64,000 nucleotides of DNA from an uncultured bacterium (GTDB lineage: Bacteria; Babelota; Babeliae; Babelales; Babelaceae), in assembly GCA_963819815.1 (NCBI GenBank), contig CAWFXL010000001.1:96001-160000 (forward strand), in the 5' to 3' direction. A program made the translations under genes and the position numbers. The notes below the pieces were generated by a model, which was not told where the DNA came from, made no database searches, and was given only the letters and a program-made list of their open reading frames with translations. Below, one piece after another: positions 7,967 to 44,138 of the stretch. Position 1 is the stretch's first letter; the number at the start of each line of letters is the position of its first letter.

Positions 7967-8059
7967 GGAGAGGTGTCTGAGTGGCTGAAGGAGCGTGATT
8001 GGAAATCGCGTATACTCTCAAAAAGGGTATCGAGGGTTCGAATCCCTCTCTCTCCACCA
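7967..8059 (+). tRNA. tRNA-Ser(GGA)
   Basis: GGAGAGG acceptor, anticodon loop TTGGAAA, long variable arm, GGTTCGAATCC T-loop, encoded CCA. Confidence 0.95.
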
Positions 8060-8072
8060 AGTATTTAAAAAT

Positions 8073-8156
8073 TGGAAGTTTATAAGGAATGTTTATATTT
8101 AATCTGTCAGGACCGAAAGGTAGCAGCAGGAGTATAAGCTTCTTGTATAAACTTCC
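8073..8156 (+). ncRNA. ffs: SRP RNA (4.5S, small bacterial type)
   Basis: Domain IV motif TCAGGACCGAAAGGTAGCAGC inside a long hairpin closed by GGAAGTTTATA / TATAAACTTCC. Confidence 0.85.
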
Positions 8157-8436
8157 ATTTTTCACATCTAGCCTCTGATGGCTCAATAATGCTTTTGGGA
8201 AGAGATAGCCAAACTGCCTACCTTGCGTCTAACTACTCATCTTATCTTATTCCAATGGATTGTCTTATCAAGACTTAGAGCCATTGCATGATTTGTTACT
8301 GGGCCTTTGCTCGGTTATAAAATAGGATAATTTTGATGCTCAATGAAGTTGGACCCCCTGCATATCCCAGTGAGTAGGTGGATCATGCTGGTGTGCACTG
8401 GGCGGTTATACATGGTATAAGAGTGTAGCAAAACTG

Positions 8437-17829: not shown

Positions 17830-17905
17830 GGGGTTGTAGCTCATCTGGTAGAGCGCATGGATGGCATTCATGAGGTAATGGGTTCGACTCCCATCAACTC
17901 CACCA
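17830..17905 (+). tRNA. tRNA-Ala(GGC)
   Basis: 76-nt cloverleaf, G3:U70 pair, anticodon GGC, GGTTCGACTCC, CCA end. Confidence 0.95.
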
Positions 17906-29673: not shown

Positions 29674-31035
29674 TTAGCCACTATGGCCTACCAGCATTGC
29701 ATTGGCGGCTATGCCTGCACCAATACCAGCTGCCCAACAAAGAGCCTGTTTCAGTTCAAATGACCTTTCTGGATTTGCTTTCTTGACCAGAGTATATGCC
29801 CCTAGGCCAGCTGCGCTATATACGAGCCATGTAGACTTAGGAGTAAAACGATCAGGTTTATTATAATCTCGACCTACTAAAAGTCCTACACAAAGACCTC
29901 CAAGAAAATCACCAGTAGACCCTTTAAGAAATTCAGGAGCTGTCTCTTCTTCAGTGGTTTCATGAAAGTGAGGGACCTTAGAGTTAGAATGACGGCTTGG
30001 AAGACGGTGAGCCCGTTTCATACAGGCGAGCTCTTCTCGTTTGCCCGTATTAATGACCACTACCTGCCAATCTCGTGGATCAAGATGTTTTGGTAGCAGC
30101 TTATTTAGTTGTGCATCCTCTTTGGTGAGATCCTTGATAGGGTACAAGTCTGGTAGCACACGCAGATTGCCTTGCTTTAAACCAAACTTTTTACGGAATT
30201 CATCAGGGGTCATGCCATCGATGGTGTCATCCTCATCATCAGGTATATCAAAAGTTACATTCTTTTTTGGCTTAGAAGCGACTTTTGCAGTGGCTGGCAC
30301 TCTAAGGTCTACCGGAATATGTTCTTGAAGCAGGTCTGCTGCAGAGCGTATTTTTTGAAGACTCGTGGATTCTTTTTTAGTAGGGGCTCTCTGTAAGTAT
30401 TTCAGTATAACCTGATCGTTTCCATCCTTTTGGAGGGGATCTATAATCTTCATCGGTTTTCTACAGGTAGGGCATTGATGCTTGCTTCGGGCTGCTTTTA
30501 GAGCTTCTTCCAGAGACAGGTTATGCCCGCACCCTAACTCAATAATAATATGACCTTTATCTACCTCTTGTTGAGACGCAGAACATTTTCGAAGTACCGT
30601 ATCAGGAGCTGGCTTAGTTGAAGGCGTATGTCTCATTAAATACGCGTGTAGCTTGTTTTGTTCTTGAGCGTTGAGCGGCTTTTGACGATGGTGTACATAC
30701 GCATAGCTATTTTTAGTGATCCGAGGATCATGTACCTTATAGGTGCTACGGCAGGTTGGACATGCCCTATCCATTGGATTCGCACGATCCATTGCGATTA
30801 AACAATCTAAGCAATAATGATGGTTAACTTTTTGCTGGCAATCGAACTGAATAACGATACTGTCAGGTGTATAAGCGGTCATGCAAATGGGACAGCCTGT
30901 TCCCTCATCCTCTTCTTCTACTTCATGAGTATGAGCTCTCGGTCCTGTGGCCCAGAGACTTGGGGTAATACTGCCAAAAAGCACTGCTACACCGAGCAGG
31001 GTAATAAGTAATTTCTTCATAGTAAACTTCCACAT
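29674..31035 (-). CDS. Secreted RING-finger protein (one intact and one degenerate RING) with C-terminal hydrophobic helices
   Basis: CPIC..C..HHYCLDC..CPTCR and LGCGH..CPTCR; signal peptide; start may be MKKLL at 31020. Confidence 0.8.
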   Translation of the reverse strand: MWKFTMKKLLITLLGVAVLFGSITPSLWATGPRAHTHEVEEEDEGTGCPICMTAYTPDSIVIQFDCQQKVNHHYCLDCLIAMDRANPMDRACPTCRSTYKVHDPRITKNSYAYVHHRQKPLNAQEQNKLHAYLMRHTPSTKPAPDTVLRKCSASQQEVDKGHIIIELGCGHNLSLEEALKAARSKHQCPTCRKPMKIIDPLQKDGNDQVILKYLQRAPTKKESTSLQKIRSAADLLQEHIPVDLRVPATAKVASKPKKNVTFDIPDDEDDTIDGMTPDEFRKKFGLKQGNLRVLPDLYPIKDLTKEDAQLNKLLPKHLDPRDWQVVVINTGKREELACMKRAHRLPSRHSNSKVPHFHETTEEETAPEFLKGSTGDFLGGLCVGLLVGRDYNKPDRFTPKSTWLVYSAAGLGAYTLVKKANPERSFELKQALCWAAGIGAGIAANAMLVGHSG

Positions 31036-32837: not shown

Positions 32838-35552
32838 TTATTTAAGGTTGTATTCTTGACAGCGTCTGTTAACCGATGAGCGGTTAACCCCTAAGAGGGT
32901 AGCAATTTTGCTTTGACTTTTGAACTTATGCCAGAGGATAGACATAACATGAGGATCCTTGAGAGCCTTTTTGCCTAGCCGCACTGCATGAGCAATATCT
33001 GGATCTGAAACGTTATAAGCGGGATCAAATTTAGTAACTTCAGAAATATTATGCTTACTCGATTTTTGGACAAGGAGTTGATGTACTCGATCTTTAAAGG
33101 CACGTAAGCTTAATGGCCGTTCATCATAGAGTTTTGAGGTATCTTTATCAGTTAATGAGAGCAAGTTTTTATAGGTATCTTCAGTAACAATTTGATCGGC
33201 AAATCCTTGAGCTAAAGCAGTGACCTCAGGTTCTGAAAGCTCATGCATTGGAGGCATAACCAATGAGGTTTGTTCAAGCTCATCATAGAGCTCCTGACAG
33301 AAGGCGCCTTCATGGACAAGCTGCAGAAGATTTTTGTTGGTTGAACAGATAATGCGAACGTTACTAAATACTTTATGGTCGCTCTTAAATTTATGAAAAT
33401 AACCAAGTGAAATGAACTCTGCTAAATAATTTTGAGTCTCTGTTCCTAAATATTCAACATTCTGGATAAAGAGGGTTCCGATATTATCTAGTTTTTCAAG
33501 CAGGGGCTGAATGCCATCTTTTTTTATGAGCGGATTATGGCCAAAGAGTTTTACAGCAACATCGTCCTGTTTCTCAGGAGAAGTAAGTTTTATGGTATGG
33601 AGTGATTGTCGGAGGCTTATGTTATGGAGTACTTCAACGGTTGGTATAAGATCTTCCTCAGGCAGATCAAGGAGCGTAGCTTTTTTACCTAATGCCGTTG
33701 AAAGCAGGTTAATTTTAAAGGAAAGGAGCTTTTCGCTATTTCCTGGTATAAGTCTGTTTATTAATTGGCCTGATTGTGTCGTTTCTAAATAGAGAACGTA
33801 GTCCCACATGGAAGGATCTTTGAGCTCGTCAAAGTGAGTTTTGATGATATCTGAAACTTCGGGATAATGAATCAAGACAATCGTTGCCCGCTCTTCAAGG
33901 CTTGGGATACCATTTATAATAATTTTTTGTCCTTTTGCGTCATGTGCAAAGGTAGTTTGCGAGGTCTTAAATTCTTGCACACGACGAGCAAGTGTTCGGA
34001 TTGCCTGAGTAAGAGGGTGGCCTTCATTCGCATTTAAATCTATCCCGACAAGCTCTTGAGCGGCCTCATTTGCTAGGGTGAACTTACGATACTTATAAAA
34101 GAGGATACCGACTTTACGCTCTTTATTTGAGCGTAAGAAGGAGCGTATACTTTCCTTATATTGATTAATTTCCTGGTGCTTGTAATACAGCTCTTCGCTA
34201 ATCACTTTATGTCTCTGATGAAGTGCTTCTAAATTACTATATTTGAGAATGTTAATAATATTGCTCACATAGGTGGTAAACACGAGCATTTCATCTCGAT
34301 CTTTATTAGTGTACAGTTTGCCCGGTCGTGCATCACGCTCTACAATGATATAGGCGGAGATACCAGATCTCTCAAAGATTGGGAGGAACACGTCGGCATT
34401 AATTTCGTTGAGGAATTGAAGAATTTCCTGATTTTGAGCATCATCTTCATAAAAGGCGGAAAAATGAATGTCGTCTCGTATAAATATTTTTAGTTTATGT
34501 AATGCCTGGGTAACCACTTCTTGCTTGTCGATATACTGCTCGACCTTTGCTGTTGTCTGCGCAATATCATAGTAGTTGTGATCATCCTGCTCTGAATCTG
34601 CTTTACGAATATAAAGTCTTACACGACCTAGAGGGATGCTAAAAGCAGTCTGAAAAAAACTCTGAGTGAGCTGGGCAAGCTCCTTGAGTGCACTTGCATA
34701 GCTTAGCTGCTCCAAAATATCTTTAAATTGTGTGATGAAGTTAAATTTCTGTTTTGATTCGACGGTCTTTCTGATATTAAGGAACCTCAGGCCTAACATT
34801 TTTTGAATAATGAGATAAATGGCGGCACTACTTAAGAGACTCGTAAGCGAGAGAAGATTAATTCTATGATACCAGGCTGTCGGAATGATCCAGGCGAGTG
34901 TTTGACCGGAGTTATTAAGAAGGTCAAAGCCTATAAAGGGAATAAGGAAACTGGTAAATACACGAATATGTTGCCGTAAAATAGTAGGAAGTTCTCGGTT
35001 ACTATCACGCAGTACCCTATAAAATAGGGGAATGAGAAGGAAAAAGAGCAAGTAAAAATGAATCGCTTGGATAAGGTCCATCTCAAAATTGACTGTTCTT
35101 GGATTGAGCGGAGGAATTCCATAATTAATGAACGCGTGATAGAGATACGTGCAACTGATGGCAATATTAACTAGTATATGAAGGGTAGTCGTGAGGGGAT
35201 GCCAGGTGATTCGTTTGTGGAGCAAAAATTCAAAGAAAAGTGCAATCGTTTGAATTTGCGTTATGTAAATTGACCAACATATACGACAATAAAGAGTGAA
35301 GACAGGAATATCCCCCACAATGTGATTAATACCTCTAATCCAATATTGCAAGATAAAGGTAAGATCATTTGCAAGTAATCCACCAAGGAAAAACAAAAGA
35401 CAGACCAAGAGCATTCGGCGGCTTTTTGCTGAGAAATAGTAGAATATACAGCCAAAGAAGATGATCGCTTTAAAAAGCCATGCACCAATCATAATGCCAA
35501 GCGTGACATACTGATTACTCAATAGTGTATAGATGGAACTCAGATATTGCAT
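32838..35552 (-). CDS. Membrane-anchored one-component regulator: ~7TM + GAF + PAS + degenerate sigma54-activator AAA+ + Fis-type HTH (receptor 1)
   Basis: ~7 hydrophobic segments in aa 1-255; GAF-like VFLPI..AYIIVE...LYT..D; PAS-like ANEAA.ELVG; GTLFI..VRIICSTNKNL..V.EG.F; QSKIA.LLGVNRSSV.RR. Confidence 0.85.
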   Translation of the reverse strand: MQYLSSIYTLLSNQYVTLGIMIGAWLFKAIIFFGCIFYYFSAKSRRMLLVCLLFFLGGLLANDLTFILQYWIRGINHIVGDIPVFTLYCRICWSIYITQIQTIALFFEFLLHKRITWHPLTTTLHILVNIAISCTYLYHAFINYGIPPLNPRTVNFEMDLIQAIHFYLLFFLLIPLFYRVLRDSNRELPTILRQHIRVFTSFLIPFIGFDLLNNSGQTLAWIIPTAWYHRINLLSLTSLLSSAAIYLIIQKMLGLRFLNIRKTVESKQKFNFITQFKDILEQLSYASALKELAQLTQSFFQTAFSIPLGRVRLYIRKADSEQDDHNYYDIAQTTAKVEQYIDKQEVVTQALHKLKIFIRDDIHFSAFYEDDAQNQEILQFLNEINADVFLPIFERSGISAYIIVERDARPGKLYTNKDRDEMLVFTTYVSNIINILKYSNLEALHQRHKVISEELYYKHQEINQYKESIRSFLRSNKERKVGILFYKYRKFTLANEAAQELVGIDLNANEGHPLTQAIRTLARRVQEFKTSQTTFAHDAKGQKIIINGIPSLEERATIVLIHYPEVSDIIKTHFDELKDPSMWDYVLYLETTQSGQLINRLIPGNSEKLLSFKINLLSTALGKKATLLDLPEEDLIPTVEVLHNISLRQSLHTIKLTSPEKQDDVAVKLFGHNPLIKKDGIQPLLEKLDNIGTLFIQNVEYLGTETQNYLAEFISLGYFHKFKSDHKVFSNVRIICSTNKNLLQLVHEGAFCQELYDELEQTSLVMPPMHELSEPEVTALAQGFADQIVTEDTYKNLLSLTDKDTSKLYDERPLSLRAFKDRVHQLLVQKSSKHNISEVTKFDPAYNVSDPDIAHAVRLGKKALKDPHVMSILWHKFKSQSKIATLLGVNRSSVNRRCQEYNLK

Positions 35553-35568: not shown

Positions 35569-35596
35569 TTGACTTTTGAAAAAACTGTTATAGAAT
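35569..35596 (+). promoter_or_regulatory. sigma70 promoter, peptide unit 1
   Basis: TTGACT-N16-TAGAAT, conserved in all three units. Confidence 0.75.
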
Positions 35597-35730
35597 CACT
35601 TTACAGAAAATCTAATCAAAAAGAGTTTAACTCCGTAGCAGCTAATGTCAAATTGTGCGCAATGGTTGCTACTTGAAGCTAAGGAATTGTAGCTGGTGGT
35701 TTTTTAATATATTTTCAAAAAGGAGTAACG

Positions 35731-35853
35731 ATGGCTAAACTAATTGTTAGCGCATTGTTCGCTATACTAATGACTGGTGCAGTAGCTGAAGTTTCTGCAC
35801 AGACTCGGTCCGAGGTTGCTAAAACTTATGCAATCTGCCCGTTTCCGTTCTAA
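35731..35853 (+). CDS. Small secreted peptide precursor 1 (40 aa) MAKLIVSALFAILMTGAVAEVSAQTRSEVAKTYAICPFPF
   Basis: Manually translated; AGGAG 5 nt before ATG; Sec-like signal ending VSA|Q; two paralogs downstream; followed by terminator. Confidence 0.9.
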   Translation: MAKLIVSALFAILMTGAVAEVSAQTRSEVAKTYAICPFPF

Positions 35854-35858
35854 AGTAT

Positions 35859-35910
35859 TAACTATAAAGAAAGCACCCCTCGAATTCGAGGGGTGCTTTC
35901 TTTATAGTTA
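35859..35910. terminator. Perfect 52-bp palindrome after peptide gene 1
   Basis: TAACTATAAAGAAAGCACCCCTCGAA|TTCGAGGGGTGCTTTCTTTATAGTTA. Confidence 0.85.
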
Positions 35911-36000
35911 GGTCTTGCAGCTACTATTGAGGGGAATGTACCCCAAATCTACGTTTTAAAAGTTTATTGTTCTCCCTAAGAATTTCTTATTTATTTTTGG

Positions 36001-36028
36001 TTGACTTTTGAAGAAACCGTTATACAAT
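36001..36028 (+). promoter_or_regulatory. sigma70 promoter, peptide unit 2
   Basis: TTGACT-N16-TACAAT. Confidence 0.75.
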
Positions 36029-36161
36029 AATTTAGAAGAACTGCACGTAACATAAAAATAATATAACTTCGAGCAGCAGCGTATAGTAATTACTTGGCGG
36101 CTGTTTAGGTTCTGAGAATTGTAGTGGGTTGGTTTTTATTATTATTCAAATAGGAGTGATG

Positions 36162-36284
36162 ATGACAAAGCTTATTTTTAGTGCTTTGCTTGCTATGGTA
36201 ATGATTGGTTCAGTAGCAGAACTTTCTGCACAGACTCGGTCAGAAGCTGCCAAAACTTATGCAGTCTGCCCATTTCCGTTCTAA
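36162..36284 (+). CDS. Small secreted peptide precursor 2 (40 aa) MTKLIFSALLAMVMIGSVAELSAQTRSEAAKTYAVCPFPF
   Basis: Manually translated; AGGAG RBS; frame-preserving, mostly conservative or synonymous differences from copy 1. Confidence 0.9.
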   Translation: MTKLIFSALLAMVMIGSVAELSAQTRSEAAKTYAVCPFPF

Positions 36285-36299
36285 CTTATTCTAACTTTA

Positions 36300-36340
36300 A
36301 AATTAAGAACCCCCTCGAATCTCGAGGGGGTTCTTAATTT
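36300..36340. terminator. 19-bp-arm hairpin after peptide gene 2
   Basis: AAATTAAGAACCCCCTCGA-ATC-TCGAGGGGGTTCTTAATTT. Confidence 0.85.
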
Positions 36341-36430
36341 ATGGCTAAGGTATCCGAGGCTATCACTGAGGGGAAAGTGCCCCAATCTATATTTTTATAT
36401 TAGACCCAAGACGTTCCTGTTCACTTTTGG

Positions 36431-36458
36431 TTGACTTTCGAGAGAACTGTTATAGAAT
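36431..36458 (+). promoter_or_regulatory. sigma70 promoter, peptide unit 3
   Basis: TTGACT-N16-TAGAAT. Confidence 0.75.
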
Positions 36459-36571
36459 CCTCTATAAGAACTGTACAAAAAAATAATATACCTGCGGGTA
36501 GCAGCTTATAGTAGGCGGCTATATGAGTTTTGAATTGTAGTGGTTGTTTTATATATCCAATAGGAGTGACG

Positions 36572-36697
36572 ATGACAAAGCTGATTCTTAGCGTATTTCT
36601 CGCTATATTAATGACAGGAGCAGTAGTTGAAGTATCTGCGCAAGCAAAGCGTTCAACGGTTTCTACAACTTGCCCCGAAGCGCGGTTTCCGTTCTAA
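36572..36697 (+). CDS. Small secreted peptide precursor 3 (41 aa) MTKLILSVFLAILMTGAVVEVSAQAKRSTVSTTCPEARFPF
   Basis: Manually translated; AGGAG RBS; same signal peptide, divergent mature part, conserved Cys-Pro and FPF end. Confidence 0.9.
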   Translation: MTKLILSVFLAILMTGAVVEVSAQAKRSTVSTTCPEARFPF

Positions 36698-36707
36698 GCT
36701 AAAGTTA

Positions 36708-36746
36708 CAAGAAAGAGCCCCTCGAATTTCGAGGGGCTCTTTCTTG
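36708..36746. terminator. 19-bp-arm hairpin, bidirectional between peptide 3 and receptor 2
   Basis: CAAGAAAGAGCCCCTCGAA-T-TTCGAGGGGCTCTTTCTTG. Confidence 0.85.
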
Positions 36747-36759
36747 GTGCTAACAGTTT

Positions 36760-39552
36760 TCAAGTTGGTGGCTGGTTGCTTCCCAAATTAAGCTCTCTGC
36801 ATCTACGGTTCACCGAAGATCTATTCACCCCAAGAAGATGAGCAATTTTGCTTTGATTTTTGAAGGTGTACCAAAGCTGAGCCATTATGTGTGGATCGCG
36901 GAGTGCTTTTTTACCCAGTCTTACAGCTTGAGCAATGACCGGATCGGTACTACTATTAACCGGATCGATTTTTTCAATGTCTGTGATGTTGTGTGATCGG
37001 GACTTTTCAAGAAGCAGCTCTTGAATTCGCTCTTTAAGTTCTTGCAAGCTGAGAGGACATTCCTTGATAAGCTGTGAGGTTTCCTTTGGTGTGATACTCA
37101 AGAGGTCTTTAAACGTATCAGTAGTGATTAGTTGATCAGCATATCCTTGTGCAAGCAAGGTTATATCTTCATGAGCAAGGTCAGTTAATGAAGGGAGACT
37201 AATGGTAGTTGCTTGTAGCTGCTCAAAGAGCTCTTGAGAAAAGACTCCTTCACTTACTAATACTGAAAGATCTTTTGACGTTGAACAGATGATGCGGGCA
37301 GAGCTCATTATTTTTTGGTCGCTTTTCACTTTATAAAAGTATCCCATGCGGATGTACTGGGCCAAGCCCTCTTGTGAGGTGAGACTTAACAGTTCTAGAT
37401 TTTGAATAAAGAGGGTGCCTGATTCATCGAGCTTGCTAAGCAGACTTTCAGATTGACTACCGCCCAGGAGGTCATTGATCCCAAAGAGCTGTGTGGCGAT
37501 TTCATCATGCTGCTCGCGTCGGGTAAGCTTGAGGGTGTACAAGTTTCTCCTTAGGCTTATCGAATGGAGTGATGTTACCGCTGCAAGCAGATCTTCCTCA
37601 GGCAACGAAAGAAGGACAGCTTTTCTGGTTAATGCAGCAGAAAGGAGTCCGATTTTAAAGGACAAAAGTGCCTCAGAGGTGCCAGGAATAAGTTCATTAA
37701 TAAGCCGCCCCGATTGGGTCGTTTCTAAATAGAGAACATAGTCCCAACAGGAGGGATCTTTCAGATACCCAGCATGGGGTTTTAACAGATCTGAAATTTC
37801 TGGATAGTAGAGTAGGAGTATACTTGAGGTCGTATCTGCATTTGGAATACCTGAGATCACCAGCTTAGTGCCACGTGTATCCTTACCATAGGCTATCTGT
37901 GCGGTTTTATATTGTTCAACCCTTTGTGCTACGGTCGTGCATATCTTGGTGAGTGGATGTCCCGAGAGCTTATTTAGATCAAAGCCCACGAGGTCATGAG
38001 CGGCCTCATTGGCATATGAAAACGTGCGATTTTTATAGGAGATGATACCGATTTTTCGCTCATGAGAGGTGCGCATGAATGAGCGTATGAGCTCCTTGTA
38101 CTGATTAATTTCTTGATGCTTATGATAAAGTTCTTCAGTAAGCTGTTTCTTTTGTACATGTAAAGCCTCCATACTAGTCTGTTGAAGTGCGGAAATGACA
38201 TTACTTATATACGAGGTAAATACGAGCATTTCATCCCGTTCTTTATTTGTGTAGAGCTTATCAGGTCGTGCATCGCGTTCTACCATAATATAGGCAACAA
38301 TCTTTGATTGTTCGTAAATCGGTACAAAGAGATCAGCATGGAGCATATCAAGGAAAGCAAGAATTTTTCTGTTGAGATCTGAAGCCTCATAGAAAAAAGA
38401 AAATTCTACGGCTTCCCGAATAAATATTTTATCGCGGGCTAAAGCAGCACGTAACGGTTCGTCATCCTTCAGAAATTGTTCAATTTTTAGCGCTGCTCCT
38501 ATGGCTTCTGGCGAAGTGACTGGGGCATCTTTAATGAAGAGTCGGGTAAAACTGAGTCGTATACCGAAGGCTGTGTGGAAAAAGGTTTGGGTGATATGAC
38601 ACAGTTCATTGACTGCTGAGGCATACCTCACCTGCTCCAAGATGTCTTTAAAATTAGTAAGAAAGTTAAAAGGTACCTTTGAGGTGACATCTGAATGTAA
38701 ATTAAGCAATCTCAAGCCGAGCATTTTTTTACTCAAAGTTATCAGGAGAAAGGCGCTGCAGAGGGCACCAATAGTGGCCCAGGAGTATTGACCTAAGGGG
38801 AAAGGAATATGTGCCGCACTAAAAATGGTGTACCATCCATCACCAAACAGAAGCAAGGAAAAAGGAAAGAGGTATAGGAGGCATGACTGTACCTGGACAG
38901 CCAAAATTTTAGGAAGTGTTCTGGTGCGCAGTTTTCGTATAAGGAATATAAAAAGGCCCAAATACAAGATAAATACATAACAATAGCTCGCAGAAATTAC
39001 GTTATGCTCAAGGAGATATTCGCTGCTCGATGTAACTACCGGAATTCCATAATAGGCTCCAGCTTCATATAAGAAAAAACTGGTGAACAGGAGATTGCAT
39101 AGAAGGTTTAAACTATGAAGGAAGGTGCACTTAATTCTTTGGGTTAAGAGGTATTCAAAAAAGAGGGCTAATGCCTGATGTGCACTGATAAAAAGACTCA
39201 GAGAAATTCGGCAATAGAGAGTAAAAAGGGGGATATCGCCCTGTATTTCAAGAATCCTTCGTAAAACGATCGATCCAATATAGGTAGCATCATCAAGGAG
39301 CGTTCCGAAAAGAAATATGAGTAATAGAAAAAGAGGTGCCCTGAGCTGTGGTTTATTATACCAAAACTTCACAATAAACCGGCCAATAACGAGCTTGGCA
39401 AGGCTCACAAGGATGAGCGCGCCACACGTTATATACGGATTAACAAGAAAAGAGGTGAGTGCTTCCAATAAGTGGTTCATCCCTAATATCTCTAGTTCCC
39501 TCTCATGAGGGTGTATATACATGAGTACTGCTTGTACTATTAATTTAAACAA
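36760..39552 (-). CDS. Paralogous membrane-anchored 7TM-GAF-PAS-degenerate AAA+-Fis HTH regulator (receptor 2)
   Basis: Shares long near-identical blocks with 32838-35552 (VERDARP.KLYTNK.RDEMLVFT, WDYVLYLETTQSG, LLGVNRSSVNRRC); start may be ATG at 39480. Confidence 0.85.
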   Translation of the reverse strand: MFKLIVQAVLMYIHPHERELEILGMNHLLEALTSFLVNPYITCGALILVSLAKLVIGRFIVKFWYNKPQLRAPLFLLLIFLFGTLLDDATYIGSIVLRRILEIQGDIPLFTLYCRISLSLFISAHQALALFFEYLLTQRIKCTFLHSLNLLCNLLFTSFFLYEAGAYYGIPVVTSSSEYLLEHNVISASYCYVFILYLGLFIFLIRKLRTRTLPKILAVQVQSCLLYLFPFSLLLFGDGWYTIFSAAHIPFPLGQYSWATIGALCSAFLLITLSKKMLGLRLLNLHSDVTSKVPFNFLTNFKDILEQVRYASAVNELCHITQTFFHTAFGIRLSFTRLFIKDAPVTSPEAIGAALKIEQFLKDDEPLRAALARDKIFIREAVEFSFFYEASDLNRKILAFLDMLHADLFVPIYEQSKIVAYIMVERDARPDKLYTNKERDEMLVFTSYISNVISALQQTSMEALHVQKKQLTEELYHKHQEINQYKELIRSFMRTSHERKIGIISYKNRTFSYANEAAHDLVGFDLNKLSGHPLTKICTTVAQRVEQYKTAQIAYGKDTRGTKLVISGIPNADTTSSILLLYYPEISDLLKPHAGYLKDPSCWDYVLYLETTQSGRLINELIPGTSEALLSFKIGLLSAALTRKAVLLSLPEEDLLAAVTSLHSISLRRNLYTLKLTRREQHDEIATQLFGINDLLGGSQSESLLSKLDESGTLFIQNLELLSLTSQEGLAQYIRMGYFYKVKSDQKIMSSARIICSTSKDLSVLVSEGVFSQELFEQLQATTISLPSLTDLAHEDITLLAQGYADQLITTDTFKDLLSITPKETSQLIKECPLSLQELKERIQELLLEKSRSHNITDIEKIDPVNSSTDPVIAQAVRLGKKALRDPHIMAQLWYTFKNQSKIAHLLGVNRSSVNRRCRELNLGSNQPPT

Positions 39553-39643
39553 ACTAATCTATTGGTCAAATGGTTGGCGGGTCTCCTTTGTTGTCTAATG
39601 GGCAGTAAAAAGGTAAAGTAGCCCATAGGTAGCAAGGAGTGTC

Positions 39644-40306
39644 ATGCAGCTTCAGGAAAAAATAGTACGCATTATACAGCTTTTAAAAGAGGCAACAAAA
39701 GATATGCCTCCGACCTTAACGACGTCCCTCATAAAAGACTATGGGCGGGACCCGTTTATTATCCTTATTTCGTGTCTTTTGAGCCTCCGTGCAAAAGATA
39801 CAGCCACCTATCCGGTGAGTAAAAAGCTCTTTGAGCGAGTGCGTACGCCTGAGGAGCTGCTTAAGATGCCTGTTAAAGAGCTCGAGGAACTTCTTTATCC
39901 GCTTGGGTTTTATCGTAAGAAGACCGAAACTGTCCGATCGGTTTGCCAAGAGCTTATTAGGAGGTTTAAGGGAAATGTACCGCATACCGAGGAGGAGCTC
40001 CTCTCCTTAAAGGGAGTTGGGCGGAAAACAGCCCAGCTCGTACTTGGTAGTGCCTTCAAAATACCCACTATTTGCGTTGATACCCATGTACATAGGATTG
40101 CCAATAGGCTTGGCTGGATCCAGACGACCCATCCTGATGAAACGGAAAGGGAATTAAAACGGCTCATTCCACAAGAATATTGGCTGGATATTAATACCTA
40201 TCTCGTTATGTGGGGCCAGAATATCTGTGTACCCATCTCACCCAAATGTTCCCAATGTGTTTTGAGTCCCTTATGCCCTAAAATTGGCGTAGGGAAAAGA
40301 AGGTAA
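39644..40306 (+). CDS. nth: Endonuclease III
   Basis: HhH L.GVGRKTA, VDTHVHR, C-x6-C-x2-C-x5-C FeS motif. Confidence 0.95.
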   Translation: MQLQEKIVRIIQLLKEATKDMPPTLTTSLIKDYGRDPFIILISCLLSLRAKDTATYPVSKKLFERVRTPEELLKMPVKELEELLYPLGFYRKKTETVRSVCQELIRRFKGNVPHTEEELLSLKGVGRKTAQLVLGSAFKIPTICVDTHVHRIANRLGWIQTTHPDETERELKRLIPQEYWLDINTYLVMWGQNICVPISPKCSQCVLSPLCPKIGVGKRR

Positions 40307-41101: not shown

Positions 41102-42199
41102 ATGCAGTGGAACTGGCAGCTGGCTACATGGCCGAATTTTACCTATAACCCTGATAGCATAACTGAGCTTGAAAGAACATTTCTTTTAAGAGCAGGCAGC
41201 AGCTATGCTTTGTTATGCACTACAGGTGAGAAGGATAGAACTCAATTTATAATTGAGATGCTCACTCAAGAAGGATTAGAAAGTTCAAAAATTGAGGGAG
41301 AGCTTCTCGACCGGGAAAGTTTAGTATCATCAATTAAAAAGCACTTTGGGTTGCATGATGATAGTAAGAATCAATCTAATAAAGAGGCGGGGATGGCTGA
41401 GCTTCTCTGTAACGTATATGAGACCTACGATGCACCGCTTAGCCACGAAATGCTTTGGCAATGGCATGGGATGCTCTTTAAAAAAAATTGGTCCAGTCTT
41501 GAAGAATGCGGACAGTATCGGACACATAAAGAGCCGATGCAGATTGTTTCTGGTCATGGTGATGGACGCATCTACTTCGAAGCGCCCCCTTCAAAGAATG
41601 TATACAAAGAAATGACGAGATTTATCGAATGGTATAATGCTTCAGGCACTTCAGAGACTCTTTTAGGACGAGCTGCTCTTGCACATGTGTACTTTGAAAG
41701 TATTCATCCCTTTGAAGATGGAAATGGAAGGATAGGCAGAGTTCTTGTGGAAAAAGTTCTCTCCCAAGGAGCTCAACAACCTCTTTTGATTGCAGTTTCA
41801 AAGTGCATTGAAAAACGCAAAAAGGCCTATTATACAGAACTTGAAAGATGTAATAGGACGGTTGAGGTACAGCACGGGGTTGAGTTTTTTGCCCACATAA
41901 TCCTGCAAGCTCAGCAAGATTCGATGAGGCTTCTCAACTTTTTGATGCAGAAGTCTAAAATGCTTACGGCGCTATCAGGAAAAATCAATCAACGACAAGA
42001 AAAGGTTTTGTTGAGGATGTTTGCAGAAGGGCCCGATGGCTTTCAGGGAGGTTTAAGTGCTGAAAAATATATCTCTATTACAAAAACACCTCGTGCTACG
42101 GCTACTCGCGATTTAGTTGACCTGGTTAGTAGGGGAGCCTTGCTAAAAACTGGTGAATTGCGGTATACCCGCTACTGGCTAAATCTGGCCTATGTATGA
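41102..42199 (+). CDS. Fic family protein (DUF4172 N-terminus, C-terminal wHTH)
   Basis: MQWNWQ...WP.F; HPFEDGNGRIGR; ATATRDL.DLV. Confidence 0.93.
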   Translation: MQWNWQLATWPNFTYNPDSITELERTFLLRAGSSYALLCTTGEKDRTQFIIEMLTQEGLESSKIEGELLDRESLVSSIKKHFGLHDDSKNQSNKEAGMAELLCNVYETYDAPLSHEMLWQWHGMLFKKNWSSLEECGQYRTHKEPMQIVSGHGDGRIYFEAPPSKNVYKEMTRFIEWYNASGTSETLLGRAALAHVYFESIHPFEDGNGRIGRVLVEKVLSQGAQQPLLIAVSKCIEKRKKAYYTELERCNRTVEVQHGVEFFAHIILQAQQDSMRLLNFLMQKSKMLTALSGKINQRQEKVLLRMFAEGPDGFQGGLSAEKYISITKTPRATATRDLVDLVSRGALLKTGELRYTRYWLNLAYV

Positions 42200-42242: not shown

Positions 42243-44138
42243 TTAATGATCTTCGATTGAAATGGCGCCTTGCATGAGTCTTTGATAGTAGGGTGATTTC
42301 TTTTCAAGAACTGCTCGTGGATAGAAGACAATATCTTTTTCTTTGTCGATCAATGAAAAGTCGAGGATACCCACAGCTTCCTCAATAGTTTTTAAGCGAT
42401 GTGCAATAACGATAGTAAGCGCACTTTGCGCAAGCTCGCTAATCATCTTAGTGATAGCCATTTCACTGACTTCATCAAGACTACTTGTAGGTTCGTCAAT
42501 AAGAATAAGAGCCGGGTTATAATACTTTGCGCGCATATAGAGACTGGCAAAGTTTAAGCGTTGTCGTTGCCCACCTGAGAGGGTAAGTCCTGCTTCACCA
42601 ATGGGGGTTTCAAGTCCCTGCTTTTTCTTAAAGACATCCCAGATTCCTACCTGGGTAAGTATTTCTACGATCTCTTCATGAGTGTAGATAACCTTGTCAT
42701 GAGGTAGTCCTAAGAGCAAGTTTCGGTAGACCGTTCCACTCAAGCTACTTGCAATCTGACCTTGCATACAAATAAGGCTTCGCCGTATTTCGTCATTTAC
42801 GTTATAGACGGGTACTCCATTAACAAGAACATGACCTTTATCAGGTTTTAATTGACCGCCAAGGAGAGAGAGAAAAGTTGTTTTACCTATTCCCGAGGGC
42901 CCGATAATACCATAGAGTTTCTTCGGCTGACTGCGCGGAACCTCTATGAAAAAGGTATGATCATCAAAGATTTTTGCTTGAGGATTATAGTAAAAATGAA
43001 TGTCCTTAGCAGATACCGTAATTATATCCGTTTTTGCAGGTATAACAGGCATAGCCTCTGGAGCTGCAAGTACCGGATAGGTTTGTTTGCCAAACATTTG
43101 GATAAATAGGTAAAGATCATCTATGCGTGTGGTTGCTCGAAGAACTTTTCTAATACGCCTTCCAATCTCTATCACTTCATATGTTCCGTTAATGTAGGTA
43201 TAGAGAACAGCCACCCCTTGCATGACCGTTAATGAGCCATCCTTGATTAATGAGAACACTAACCAGCCAAGTATAAAAATGCTTCCTAAATAAAAAAGTC
43301 GTGAAATGGTCACCGATGCTGCAAAAGCGAGCCATGCCGTTCCTTCGATATCCATGAGATCTTTTGCCTTTTGTTTAGTGAGATCTGCAATTTCATGGGT
43401 AGCAAATGAGGAACGTATAAGCTGTACTTGTGTCAGACTTTCTACAGCAACTGCTTTTAATGAGTCATCCGCATCGATCATATTATTCTCAAAGGAAGCG
43501 CTGGTAAATAAGTTAAGGATTATATTAATGACCGCGATGAACGCTAACAAAATTAAGCAGGTTAATCCAAGCGTACGATCAAGAAAGAAAAAGGTGATGG
43601 TAACACTGAGCACACTTATAATAACCGGTAAGATATCCCATAACATCATATCGATGAAATTTTCATAGGCACGAGCACATCGTTCTACTTTGACAAAGAG
43701 TTTTCCGGTGGATTTTAGGGTATGGTAAAGTGGATCAACCGTAAGGAAATGTTCAATGGCATTGTACAGTATACTGTTCACGCACTGTACTTCTAAAAAT
43801 GCAGCAAAATAAACTGACACGAACTCAAGAACTATAATAAAAAGCCAGAATGCGATCAGATACAGAAAGAGCGTAAAGCTTTCAAGGTGGATGATTTTTT
43901 CAAGCAGCATCGGATAAATTGCATAGAAGCACTGGATCAGTGCAATGCAAAGAACCGAAATAGTGAGAGGCACTTTTTTTTTGCCAATAACACGCAGCCA
44001 GTGCTCACTAAAATCGATGGGAAAGACGCTAGCTTTTTTTCCAAAGTTAGCTAACCTTAGCCAAAAATGATAATAGCTCTCTACTAAATGTTTATACTGA
44101 TTAAACATGGTATTCTCAATAACTGTCACGGTATCCAA
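42243..44138 (-). CDS. Fused ABC exporter (TMD + NBD)
   Basis: ~6 TM, GPSGIGKTT, LSGGQRQR, IDEPTSSLD, IAHRL. Confidence 0.9.
   Translation of the reverse strand: MDTVTVIENTMFNQYKHLVESYYHFWLRLANFGKKASVFPIDFSEHWLRVIGKKKVPLTISVLCIALIQCFYAIYPMLLEKIIHLESFTLFLYLIAFWLFIIVLEFVSVYFAAFLEVQCVNSILYNAIEHFLTVDPLYHTLKSTGKLFVKVERCARAYENFIDMMLWDILPVIISVLSVTITFFFLDRTLGLTCLILLAFIAVINIILNLFTSASFENNMIDADDSLKAVAVESLTQVQLIRSSFATHEIADLTKQKAKDLMDIEGTAWLAFAASVTISRLFYLGSIFILGWLVFSLIKDGSLTVMQGVAVLYTYINGTYEVIEIGRRIRKVLRATTRIDDLYLFIQMFGKQTYPVLAAPEAMPVIPAKTDIITVSAKDIHFYYNPQAKIFDDHTFFIEVPRSQPKKLYGIIGPSGIGKTTFLSLLGGQLKPDKGHVLVNGVPVYNVNDEIRRSLICMQGQIASSLSGTVYRNLLLGLPHDKVIYTHEEIVEILTQVGIWDVFKKKQGLETPIGEAGLTLSGGQRQRLNFASLYMRAKYYNPALILIDEPTSSLDEVSEMAITKMISELAQSALTIVIAHRLKTIEEAVGILDFSLIDKEKDIVFYPRAVLEKKSPYYQRLMQGAISIEDH

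Follow-up and report, generated by a model that had tools for sequence, protein, structure and literature searches.

A stretch of 64,000 nucleotides from the genome of an uncultured bacterium of the order Babelales, referred to below as the window, contains three short open reading frames (ORFs) in tandem on the plus strand, whose products would all end with the residues FPF; the two genes flanking this array are both on the minus strand and have 904 and 930 codons. The question raised by this locus is whether the three ORFs are genes, what kind of peptide they would encode, and why they are found between two long regulator genes. The comparisons described below identify them as coding sequences, being the lineage-specific, triplicated form of a micro-protein family that occurs throughout the Dependentiae, and this family is linked to the gene of a large regulator in which a seven-helix transmembrane (7TM) domain is combined with a sigma-54-activator core that has lost its ATPase motifs. 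The explanation favored here, which is put forward tentatively, is that the peptides are cleaved and exported and that the 7TM regulator recognizes their C-terminus.

Three tandem peptide genes and their coding signature

The genome that holds the window (G000; 1.64 Mb, two contigs, 88% complete) has as its nearest public relatives metagenome-assembled genomes titled Candidatus Dependentiae / Babeliales. Its peptide ORFs lie in direct-repeat units, with start-to-start distances of 431 and 410 nt, and each unit has the same layout: a promoter-like site (TTGACT-16-TA(G/C)AAT), a leader of about 110-130 nt, the ribosome site AGGAG, whose spacing to the start codon is fixed across the units, the ORF and, straight after the stop codon, a perfect inverted repeat of 19-26 bp. 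A matching three-copy array is present in G001, one other genome from the genus of the window, and when the three units of each genome are aligned, the mean column identity is 72%. The features of the array are as follows.

35569..35596, plus strand: promoter-like site of unit 1, TTGACT-16-TAGAAT, which recurs at the equivalent position in the other two units of the window and in those of G001
35603..35730, plus strand: leader of unit 1 (about 130 nt, provided that the promoter has been assigned correctly), with the hairpin GTAGCAGC...GGTTGCTAC and the motif GAATTGTAG at 35684-35702
35731..35853, plus strand: peptide gene 1, 40 amino acids (aa), with a predicted 23-aa signal and a 17-aa tail ending CPFPF
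35859..35910, plus strand: terminator-like perfect inverted repeat of 26 bp after gene 1
36001..36028, plus strand: promoter-like site of unit 2, TTGACT-16-TACAAT
36162..36284, plus strand: peptide gene 2, 40 aa (41 aa from the alternative ATG at 36159), with an architecture like that of gene 1 and a tail ending CPFPF
36300..36340, plus strand: terminator-like inverted repeat of 19 bp after gene 2
36431..36458, plus strand: promoter-like site of unit 3, TTGACT-16-TAGAAT
36572..36697, plus strand: peptide gene 3, 41 aa, with a divergent 18-aa tail ending RFPF
36708..36746, plus strand: terminator-like inverted repeat of 19 bp after gene 3

When the three ORFs are compared between G000 and G001, there are 11, 3 and 12 changes at codon positions 1, 2 and 3, respectively, and the codon differences are 9 synonymous and 14 nonsynonymous, with the hydrophobic run being kept through the replacements. 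Second codon positions are likewise spared in the comparisons between paralogues. This substitution pattern is a coding signature, with moderate constraint. The initial annotation of this locus had proposed a search for the precursors in related genomes together with such a substitution test, and the search, among 41 genomes, returns three copies in G000 and three in G001. Four further weak matches (E 0.24-0.55), inside frames of 54-471 aa, are taken as chance. When the whole of G000 is scanned for ORFs that combine a ribosome site with a hydrophobic N-terminus and with [FP]P[FYW] close to the end, four are found, of which three make up the array. Among 5.8 billion protein clusters, the window peptide has one match, which is 95% identical, and Pfam and NCBIfam have no family for the window peptides or for the 7TM domain of the regulator.

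All three precursors start with M-(A/T)-K-L, which is followed by a 16-residue uncharged run and by E-(V/L)-S-A and Q at residues 20-24, the predicted cut being between the alanine and the glutamine. The features of a signal peptide (the basic residue K3, an h-region, small residues at -3 and -1 and no proline at +1) are present in all three peptides as judged by a simple (-3,-1) rule of our own, which is applied to the end of the hydrophobic run in place of SignalP, and two signal peptidase I genes (Peptidase_S26) are found in G000. This is in agreement with the initial annotation, which had described three precursors with a 23-aa signal ending (V/L)SA before Q, the corresponding mature ends, a cysteine at the fifth position from the C-terminus in copies 1 and 2, and the insertion of EAR between CP and FPF in copy 3; each of these descriptions is confirmed, and the FPF end, which it had called invariant, is present in 6 of 6 copies in the two genomes carrying the array. 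Among the homologues, it is the FPF end that is conserved and not the cysteine, and the N-terminal glutamine, to which a possible role had also been given, is not conserved among the orthologues in a 16-member alignment. Copies 1 and 2, on the one hand, and copy 3, on the other, appear from their tails to be two peptide types, which, together with the presence of two paralogous regulators, suggests a split in specificity.

A Dependentiae-wide peptide family linked to a regulator gene

The genes that flank the array encode paralogous regulators, and the next gene is nth, a conserved neighbor of the regulator family.

32838..35552, minus strand: regulator 1 (904 aa), oriented divergently to the array, with 7TM, GAF-like, coiled-coil and PAS-like regions, an ATPase-dead sigma-54-activator domain and a Fis-type helix-turn-helix (HTH)
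36760..39552, minus strand: regulator 2, a paralogue of regulator 1 (about 50% identical), convergent with the array, with an ORF of 930 aa from TTG
39644..40306, plus strand: nth (endonuclease III family), with no peptide gene in the 91-nt spacer 39553-39643

The start of regulator 2 is more likely to be the ATG at 39478-39480 (906 aa), since the similarity to regulator 1 begins near 39468. Of 41 relatives, 35 have homologues of the regulator, as do 120 of the 151 genomes in a sample taken across the phylum, and these homologues often form tandem pairs.

Next to almost every homologue in the loci retrieved, the opposite strand carries a small ORF with a ribosome site, whose start is 64-427 nt away from the start codon of the regulator. 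The products of these small ORFs, of 21-68 aa, have one to three Lys/Arg residues (none in two), one hydrophobic helix and a short tail with Pro-Pro. With preset criteria (a ribosome site, a hydropathy of 1.9 or more over 11 residues, a tail containing PP, a length of 20-70 aa and a start within 450 nt), such an ORF is found on the divergent strand in 37 of 49 regulator loci, compared with one locus of 49 when the other strand of these regions is scanned and with 0.01 per equivalent window in the rest of the loci; the same criteria applied to the whole of G000 select 19 ORFs in 3.29 million strand-bases. The 12 loci without a hit are those of the window and of G001 (FPF), three loci with P-G, one with an 87-aa ORF, one with a broken regulator, one with a transmembrane ORF lacking PP, and four that are empty, such that five of the 12 are motif variants. 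In the alignment of 16 members from the bacterial family of the window, FPF is aligned on P-P-(Y/W/G/T), and the middle proline is the only invariant column; FPF is therefore seen as the local variant of the family proline motif, which consists of PP with a hydrophobic or aromatic residue.

The 37 members have a median length of 35 aa, and PP is at most five residues from the C-terminus in 32 of them; in 19, the position two residues ahead of PP is occupied by D, E or Q. Of the hydrophobic segment, only the general character is conserved, with no conserved positions, whereas the tail is conserved. The proline motif is kept both directly after the helix, in the short forms, and 15-25 residues past the A-x-A site, in the genus of the window, and its retention at both distances would fit a ligand end better than a helix-packing partner. 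A (-3,-1) site at the end of the hydrophobic run is found in 17 of 40 members, mainly in the long-tailed forms of the bacterial family of the window. Near an extra regulator-1-like gene in G002 (G002:C2:761600-762800), there are two divergent peptide genes with products ending PIPP and PPPP, so that the tail varies freely around the prolines.

The small ORF could in principle belong to either of its neighbors. In single-regulator loci, it is mostly followed by nth in the same direction, and in tandem loci, of which the window is an example, the next feature is the 3' end of a further regulator gene; the small ORF is retained in both contexts and also where neither nth nor a regulator follows. 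In the 19 regulator-less Dependentiae genomes, 0 of 19 nth genes have such an ORF upstream, one of them being preceded by an unrelated transmembrane ORF. The small ORF follows the regulator and not nth. When 19 tandem loci are considered, several of which overlap with the 49 loci, such that the counts are not independent, the nth-proximal regulator has a PP ORF in 13 and a P-G variant in two more, and in eight, a separate PP ORF for the second regulator lies in the gap, often with a different tail type. In the genus of the window, the nth-proximal paralogue has no peptide gene in G001, G003, G005 and G006 or in the window, and the array between the two regulators, which begins 178 nt from regulator 1 in the window, is therefore the only one; the two regulators may share it. 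A further arrangement is seen in G023 (C54), where a peptide gene and a 95-residue nth fragment lie between tandem regulators, and which looks like the remnant of a duplication that copied the regulator, the peptide gene and the start of nth together.

Seven-helix domain and dead activator core of the regulator

The output half of the regulator resembles the enhancer-binding proteins (EBPs) of sigma-54. In Pfam, only the second half of the sigma-54-interaction domain (Sigma54_activat) is matched, and the NCBIfam matches are EBP models (TyrR, which is the best for regulator 1, PspF, NtrX and others) with scores far below the cut-offs. When a profile of 42 family members is compared with solved structures of the NtrC family, the Walker A, GAFTGA and Walker B positions hold unrelated residues: with the chain 3dzd, GESGTGKE faces l-p-e-e-D-l-l-p, GTLFLDEV faces g-t-L-f-I-q-n-i, and GAFTGA faces n-p-l-l. 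The domain Sigma54_DBD is not found in G000 or in 40 relatives (41 genomes). From the loss of the three motifs and the lack of Sigma54_DBD, it follows that the regulator is a sigma-54-independent, ATPase-dead EBP derivative. The C-terminal Fis-type HTH is the most conserved block of the family alignment; the TyrR and NtrX alignments reach the last residues, and the modeled helices span residues 866-899. No kinase domain is found by Pfam or NCBIfam in the neighboring regulators.

The first 262 residues are modeled with a mean predicted local distance difference test score (pLDDT) of 90.0 and a predicted template modeling score (pTM) of 0.87, as seven long helices connected by loops of 5-8 residues. 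The content of K+R in the alignment is 0.67-2.14 for the predicted inner loops and 0.24-0.48 for the outer loops, which fits an N-out/C-in topology with the output domains in the cytoplasm. The outer loops are short, and there is almost no periplasmic part in the model. Conserved polar residues inside the modeled bundle are K27, R89, W92, E156 and Q194 (model numbering, being the true number minus one). A Foldseek search with the 7TM model returns only G protein-coupled receptors (GPCRs), with a best E of 8e-4 and TM-scores of 0.45-0.59, and a comparison by VIA with 48,161 chains also gives GPCRs for all 50 of the 50 best matches listed (Z 13.9-15.9, 214-249 residues, root mean square deviation 4.0-5.4, identity 5-14%), in a method in which helical bundles reach Z of about 14 without kinship. 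On the basis of the model, the domain is taken as having a GPCR-like topology and not as a GPCR homologue. HisKA_7TM (PF16927) is a lead from ESM-Atlas only (score 0.91, the family being assigned on 21% of one cluster), and hmmscan to E 10 lists no match to it.

In the full-length model (pLDDT 82.5), the 7TM domain is followed by an alpha/beta GAF-like domain, a 60-residue helix, a PAS-like domain (with a weak match to PAS_8, E 0.12), the AAA+ fold and the terminal HTH. The 7TM domain is the fastest evolving part, its mean column identity being 33%, compared with 51% for the whole protein. It is also rare, with 399 cluster representatives among 1.84 billion proteins; the full-length representatives listed have about 900 aa and, judging from this length, probably share a single architecture. 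The prediction of a complex of the 7TM domain with the precursor has a score of 0.02 against a mark of 0.32, which counts neither for nor against binding.

Leader, promoter and terminator features

Promoter boxes of the type TTGAC(A/T) are kept upstream of the genus orthologues, and together with intrinsic terminators, they flank the ORF in eight of nine genus loci. As judged by a simple rule, an intrinsic terminator is located directly after the peptide ORF in eight of nine loci of the genus, compared with 6 of 30 elsewhere. The arrays have two to three copies of the peptide gene in G006, G009, G000 and G001. Considering the gene's own terminator, the conserved promoter boxes, the duplication and the cleavage site, the peptide gene of this genus is probably an independent, duplicated and highly expressed unit for a cleavable peptide. 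In a search of sequencing runs, two DNA runs from soil metagenomes have small word shares with the query, and there is no RNA run among the matches listed.

The leaders themselves do not fold better than shuffled sequences, the z-values being -0.66 (whole leader of unit 1), -1.57 and +0.09, and alifold finds no consensus structure in 16 genus leaders. A short leader hairpin, GTAGCAGC...G(G/C)(T/G)GCTAC, is present at 35632-35669, 36071-36105 and 36497-36521, with a loop of about 9-22 nt and with changes that are partly compensatory; this could be a stabilizer of the mRNA 5' end or a processing site. The variation of the loop between the GTAGCAGC/GCTGCTAC arms, of about 9-22 nt, argues against a fixed operator with two half-sites, and no shared operator palindrome was identified by eye in the three units.

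The motif (T)TGTAGTGG(T)T is located about 35-45 nt 5' of the start codon in 16 of 16 aligned peptide units of the genus (in the window at 35684-35702, 36116-36134 and 36532-36550). It is also located ahead of ORFs 2 and 3 in G009, neither of which has a separate promoter, and it is therefore tied to the ORF start region and not to the promoter. Part of the unit-1 leader (35674-35692), AGCTAAG-GAATTGTAG, recurs at the 5' end of each of four further short units of G000, all outside the window (C1:1001119, 1157781, 1158337 and 1159086), three of which are in tandem. The duplex energies of the RNAs of those units with the peptide start regions are no better than with 94 other starts (fractions 0.05-0.34).

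Discussion

The proposed function as a peptide signal

With respect to export, cleavage, binding, the sign of the feedback and the matching of peptides to regulators, we infer the following course of events. Each peptide gene would have a sigma-70-type promoter to itself and would give rise to a monocistronic RNA of about 300 nt. The precursor would then be exported, and signal peptidase I would cut after (V/L)-S-A, generating a periplasmic peptide of 17-18 aa. Its proline/aromatic C-terminus would be read by the membrane bundle of the adjacent regulator or regulators, which, without sigma-54 or ATP hydrolysis, would alter transcription from the shared intergenic region, such that an autocrine or density-type feedback loop results. 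The end that acts as the ligand would be tethered in the short forms and released in the genus of the window. The C-terminal end is favored as the ligand of the 7TM domain because the proline tail is conserved and the helix is not, and because the partner has no periplasmic domain but only a bundle lined with polar residues. The wider proposal is that this is a native peptide signaling system of a new design, in which a GPCR-like receptor, fused to a transcription factor derived from a dead activator, reads the proline/aromatic end of an adjacent exported peptide, with the peptide of the genus being cleaved, soluble, triplicated, of two types and shared by two paralogous receptors; in this full form, the proposal is possible but doubtful.

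Several observations weigh against the favored explanation. The compared genomes are all relatives and not independent, such that the counts overstate the independence of the evidence, and the structural matches of the 7TM domain have Z-scores of the size that unrelated bundles also reach. There are 5 promoter-like sites in the region compared with 4.4 in shuffled sequences, which is no excess. In other families, the short forms, with tails of 3-8 residues, mostly have no (-3,-1) site (23 of 40), and the ancestral form looks like an uncleaved, tail-anchored membrane micro-protein and not like a released peptide. By the same simple rule as above, no terminator separates the small ORF from nth in 24 of 30 loci of most lineages, and these terminator-less ORFs upstream of nth may serve another purpose. 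Finally, a 17-aa periplasmic peptide would not obviously exit from a diderm cell, which weakens the case for a true cell-to-cell signal.

Alternative explanations

The main rival explanation, which is unlikely but has to be taken seriously, is that the product is an uncleaved small membrane protein located beside the 7TM bundle and tuning it, as MgrB tunes PhoQ; the helix would then be the anchor, the proline tail would touch the outer face, and no signal would be released. MgrB, a membrane peptide of 47 aa, acts on PhoQ as a feedback inhibitor (PMC2789325, 10.1101/438515). This would agree with the predominance of the short forms (21-36 aa) in the family, with their short tails, mostly without a cleavage site, and with the short outer loops of the regulator, which imply that a partner must act at or in the membrane. 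It agrees less well with the canonical signal-peptide end that is conserved among the orthologues of the genus, where an h-region of 16 residues is followed by E-V-S-A and Q, with the presence of conserved positions in the tail and not in the helix, and with the long forms, in which the motif is kept 15-25 residues away from the helix. An uncleaved membrane product had also been named in the initial annotation as the finding that would speak against mature peptides; the window peptides do have a predicted cleavage site, whereas most of the wider family looks uncleaved.

It is also conceivable, although improbable, that the peptides are exported for an unrelated purpose, as a host-directed effector, an antimicrobial or a component of the envelope, and that the regulator controls their expression or merely adjoins them. 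The promoter and terminator of each gene and the triplication suggest high expression, as would suit such a purpose, and many ORFan proteins are exported by Dependentiae according to the Chromulinavorax genome paper (PMC6561590). The one-to-one linkage throughout the order, including the separate peptide genes for paralogous regulators, and the loss of the peptide gene together with the regulator argue against this explanation.

Even less probable is a proline-dependent ribosome-arrest leader, of the SecM/MifM/VemP type or acting by EF-P-dependent stalling at PP, which would control a downstream gene such as nth. Most members do have PP within a few codons of the stop, and nth is downstream and co-directional in most single-regulator loci, mostly with no detectable terminator. 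In the window, however, a perfect hairpin comes after each peptide ORF, and beyond it there is either another unit or a convergent gene, which leaves nothing downstream to control, and the same pattern, with a terminator and no co-directional gene behind the hairpin, is seen in eight of nine genus loci. The window peptides also carry F-P-F instead of PP, the nth genes of the regulator-less genomes lack the ORF, and peptides of 21-28 aa would still be within the ribosome tunnel when PP is decoded, such that a force from export would not be sensed.

A cyclized or otherwise modified pheromone of the agr type, with a thiolactone formed via the cysteine, or a disulfide-linked dimer, as had been considered in the initial annotation, is disfavored and seems hardly credible. 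The Cys-X4 geometry of copies 1 and 2 and the hydrophobic last residues had pointed to it. However, the cysteine is replaced by alanine in copy 1 of G001, the remaining peptide being kept, the spacing differs in copy 3, and only 10 of 37 family tails have a cysteine. The absence of AgrB and of an AgrD-type C-terminal tail, which had been stated as a caveat, is borne out: PF04647 has no match in G000 (88% complete; the control genomes gave no match over the cut-off), and the precursors end at FPF, with no recognition tail. There is no histidine kinase and no modifying enzyme among the neighbors (PBP, RING, FtsH, nth, Fic, ABC). Of the earlier idea of a secreted signal, the agr-type chemistry is abandoned, and signaling is kept in a broader form, which the link of the genes to a receptor-like membrane regulator makes plausible.

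That the units are untranslated small RNA genes with incidental ORFs, to which the long conserved leader with the motif TGTAGTGGTT and the resemblance of part of the unit-1 leader to the 5' ends of other short G000 units could point, is most improbable in view of the spared second codon positions, the fixed AGGAG spacing, the conservation of the peptide architecture across the order where the DNA is not alignable, and the lack of a consensus RNA fold.

Comparison with known systems

A peptide with a cognate membrane-bound sensor-regulator is a known principle; the components found here belong to no described family. The systems that are closest in logic are SHP/Rgg, the Agr/Com peptide systems and MgrB-PhoQ, and the defining features of each of these are absent. 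SHP genes adjoin, often divergently, the gene of their own transcription factor. A short hydrophobic precursor gene beside the regulator is also what is observed here, in 37 of 49 loci. The SHP precursors, as described in the literature, are also alike in having 20-35 aa, a basic N-terminus with a hydrophobic stretch, an active C-terminal end and often several copies per genome (PMC3679016, PMC5167397, PMC13361665). Rgg, however, is a soluble cytoplasmic TPR/HTH protein that requires re-import of the peptide, whereas the regulator described here is embedded in the membrane by its 7TM domain and has an AAA+ core that is dead; the present system is also that of a diderm intracellular parasite, and its peptides have the PP/FPF motif and, in place of Eep processing, a canonical signal-peptidase site.

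In the AgrD/AgrC and ComC/ComD systems, the peptide is likewise exported and then sensed by a polytopic receptor in the membrane, whose gene belongs to the same locus, and peptide and sensor domain diversify quickly. The locus described here differs in having no AgrB, C-terminal tail, conserved cysteine, histidine kinase or response regulator, and in that the receptor itself would be the DNA-binding protein. MgrB resembles the peptides in being a single-pass peptide of <50 aa with a short extracytoplasmic tail that acts on a membrane sensor in a feedback loop (PMC2789325). The mgrB gene, however, is not beside phoQ, MgrB has conserved periplasmic cysteines, and its target is a kinase with a periplasmic domain, whereas in the Dependentiae the linkage is strict and the conserved element is the proline motif.

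The output half of the regulator is comparable with the sigma-54-independent EBP relatives TyrR, NtrX and VpsR, which have the AAA+ activator fold and a C-terminal Fis-type HTH and lack the GAFTGA loop; NtrX and VpsR chains are among the PDB profile matches of the regulator. These proteins are soluble and most of them keep nucleotide binding, whereas here Walker A and Walker B are lost and an N-terminal 7TM domain is added. A membrane-tethered DNA-binding domain with a small accessory membrane or periplasmic partner encoded alongside is known from ToxR/ToxS, CadC and TcpP/TcpH. ToxR, CadC and TcpP differ in being single-pass proteins with a winged-helix domain and a periplasmic sensor, unlike the 7TM bundle with almost no periplasmic loops and the EBP-derived output domain described here.

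Dependentiae are obligate parasites of protists and have very few regulators. A conserved pair of exported peptide and 7TM transcription factor would be the main candidate sensory circuit of this phylum, in view of the presence of the regulator in 120 of the 151 genomes. Because routine annotation misses genes as small as those of the peptides, the pairing is invisible in databases, and in the Dependentiae literature, supplements left aside, no description of the regulator family or of the peptides was found. In the passages covered, the Chromulinavorax genome paper states that quorum-sensing mechanisms are absent and lists other regulators without mentioning the regulator family described here (PMC6561590). 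If the favored explanation is true, this would represent a novel link between a membrane receptor and DNA, and the parasite could sense its own density or its confinement inside the host cell. With two peptide types and two receptors, the window would be a natural specificity experiment.

Other features of the window

Rfam at gathering thresholds finds nothing in the array; its only matches in the window are two tRNAs and the small signal recognition particle RNA, at 7967-8162 and 17830-17902, which is an ordinary chromosomal context. A 631-aa ABC exporter-type protein (42243-44138, minus strand; ABC_membrane and ABC_tran), encoded 5 kb from the array and considered as a possible dedicated exporter, has no peptidase domain among its domain matches. 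At a distance of three genes from the array, 41102-42199 (plus strand) encodes a Fic/DOC protein that also contains DUF4172. On the other side of the array, at 29674-31035 (minus strand), there is the gene of a 453-aa RING-finger protein of the eukaryote type (zf-RING_2, E 4e-9), which is, as judged from this domain match, a candidate host-directed, ubiquitin-ligase-like effector of an intracellular bacterium.

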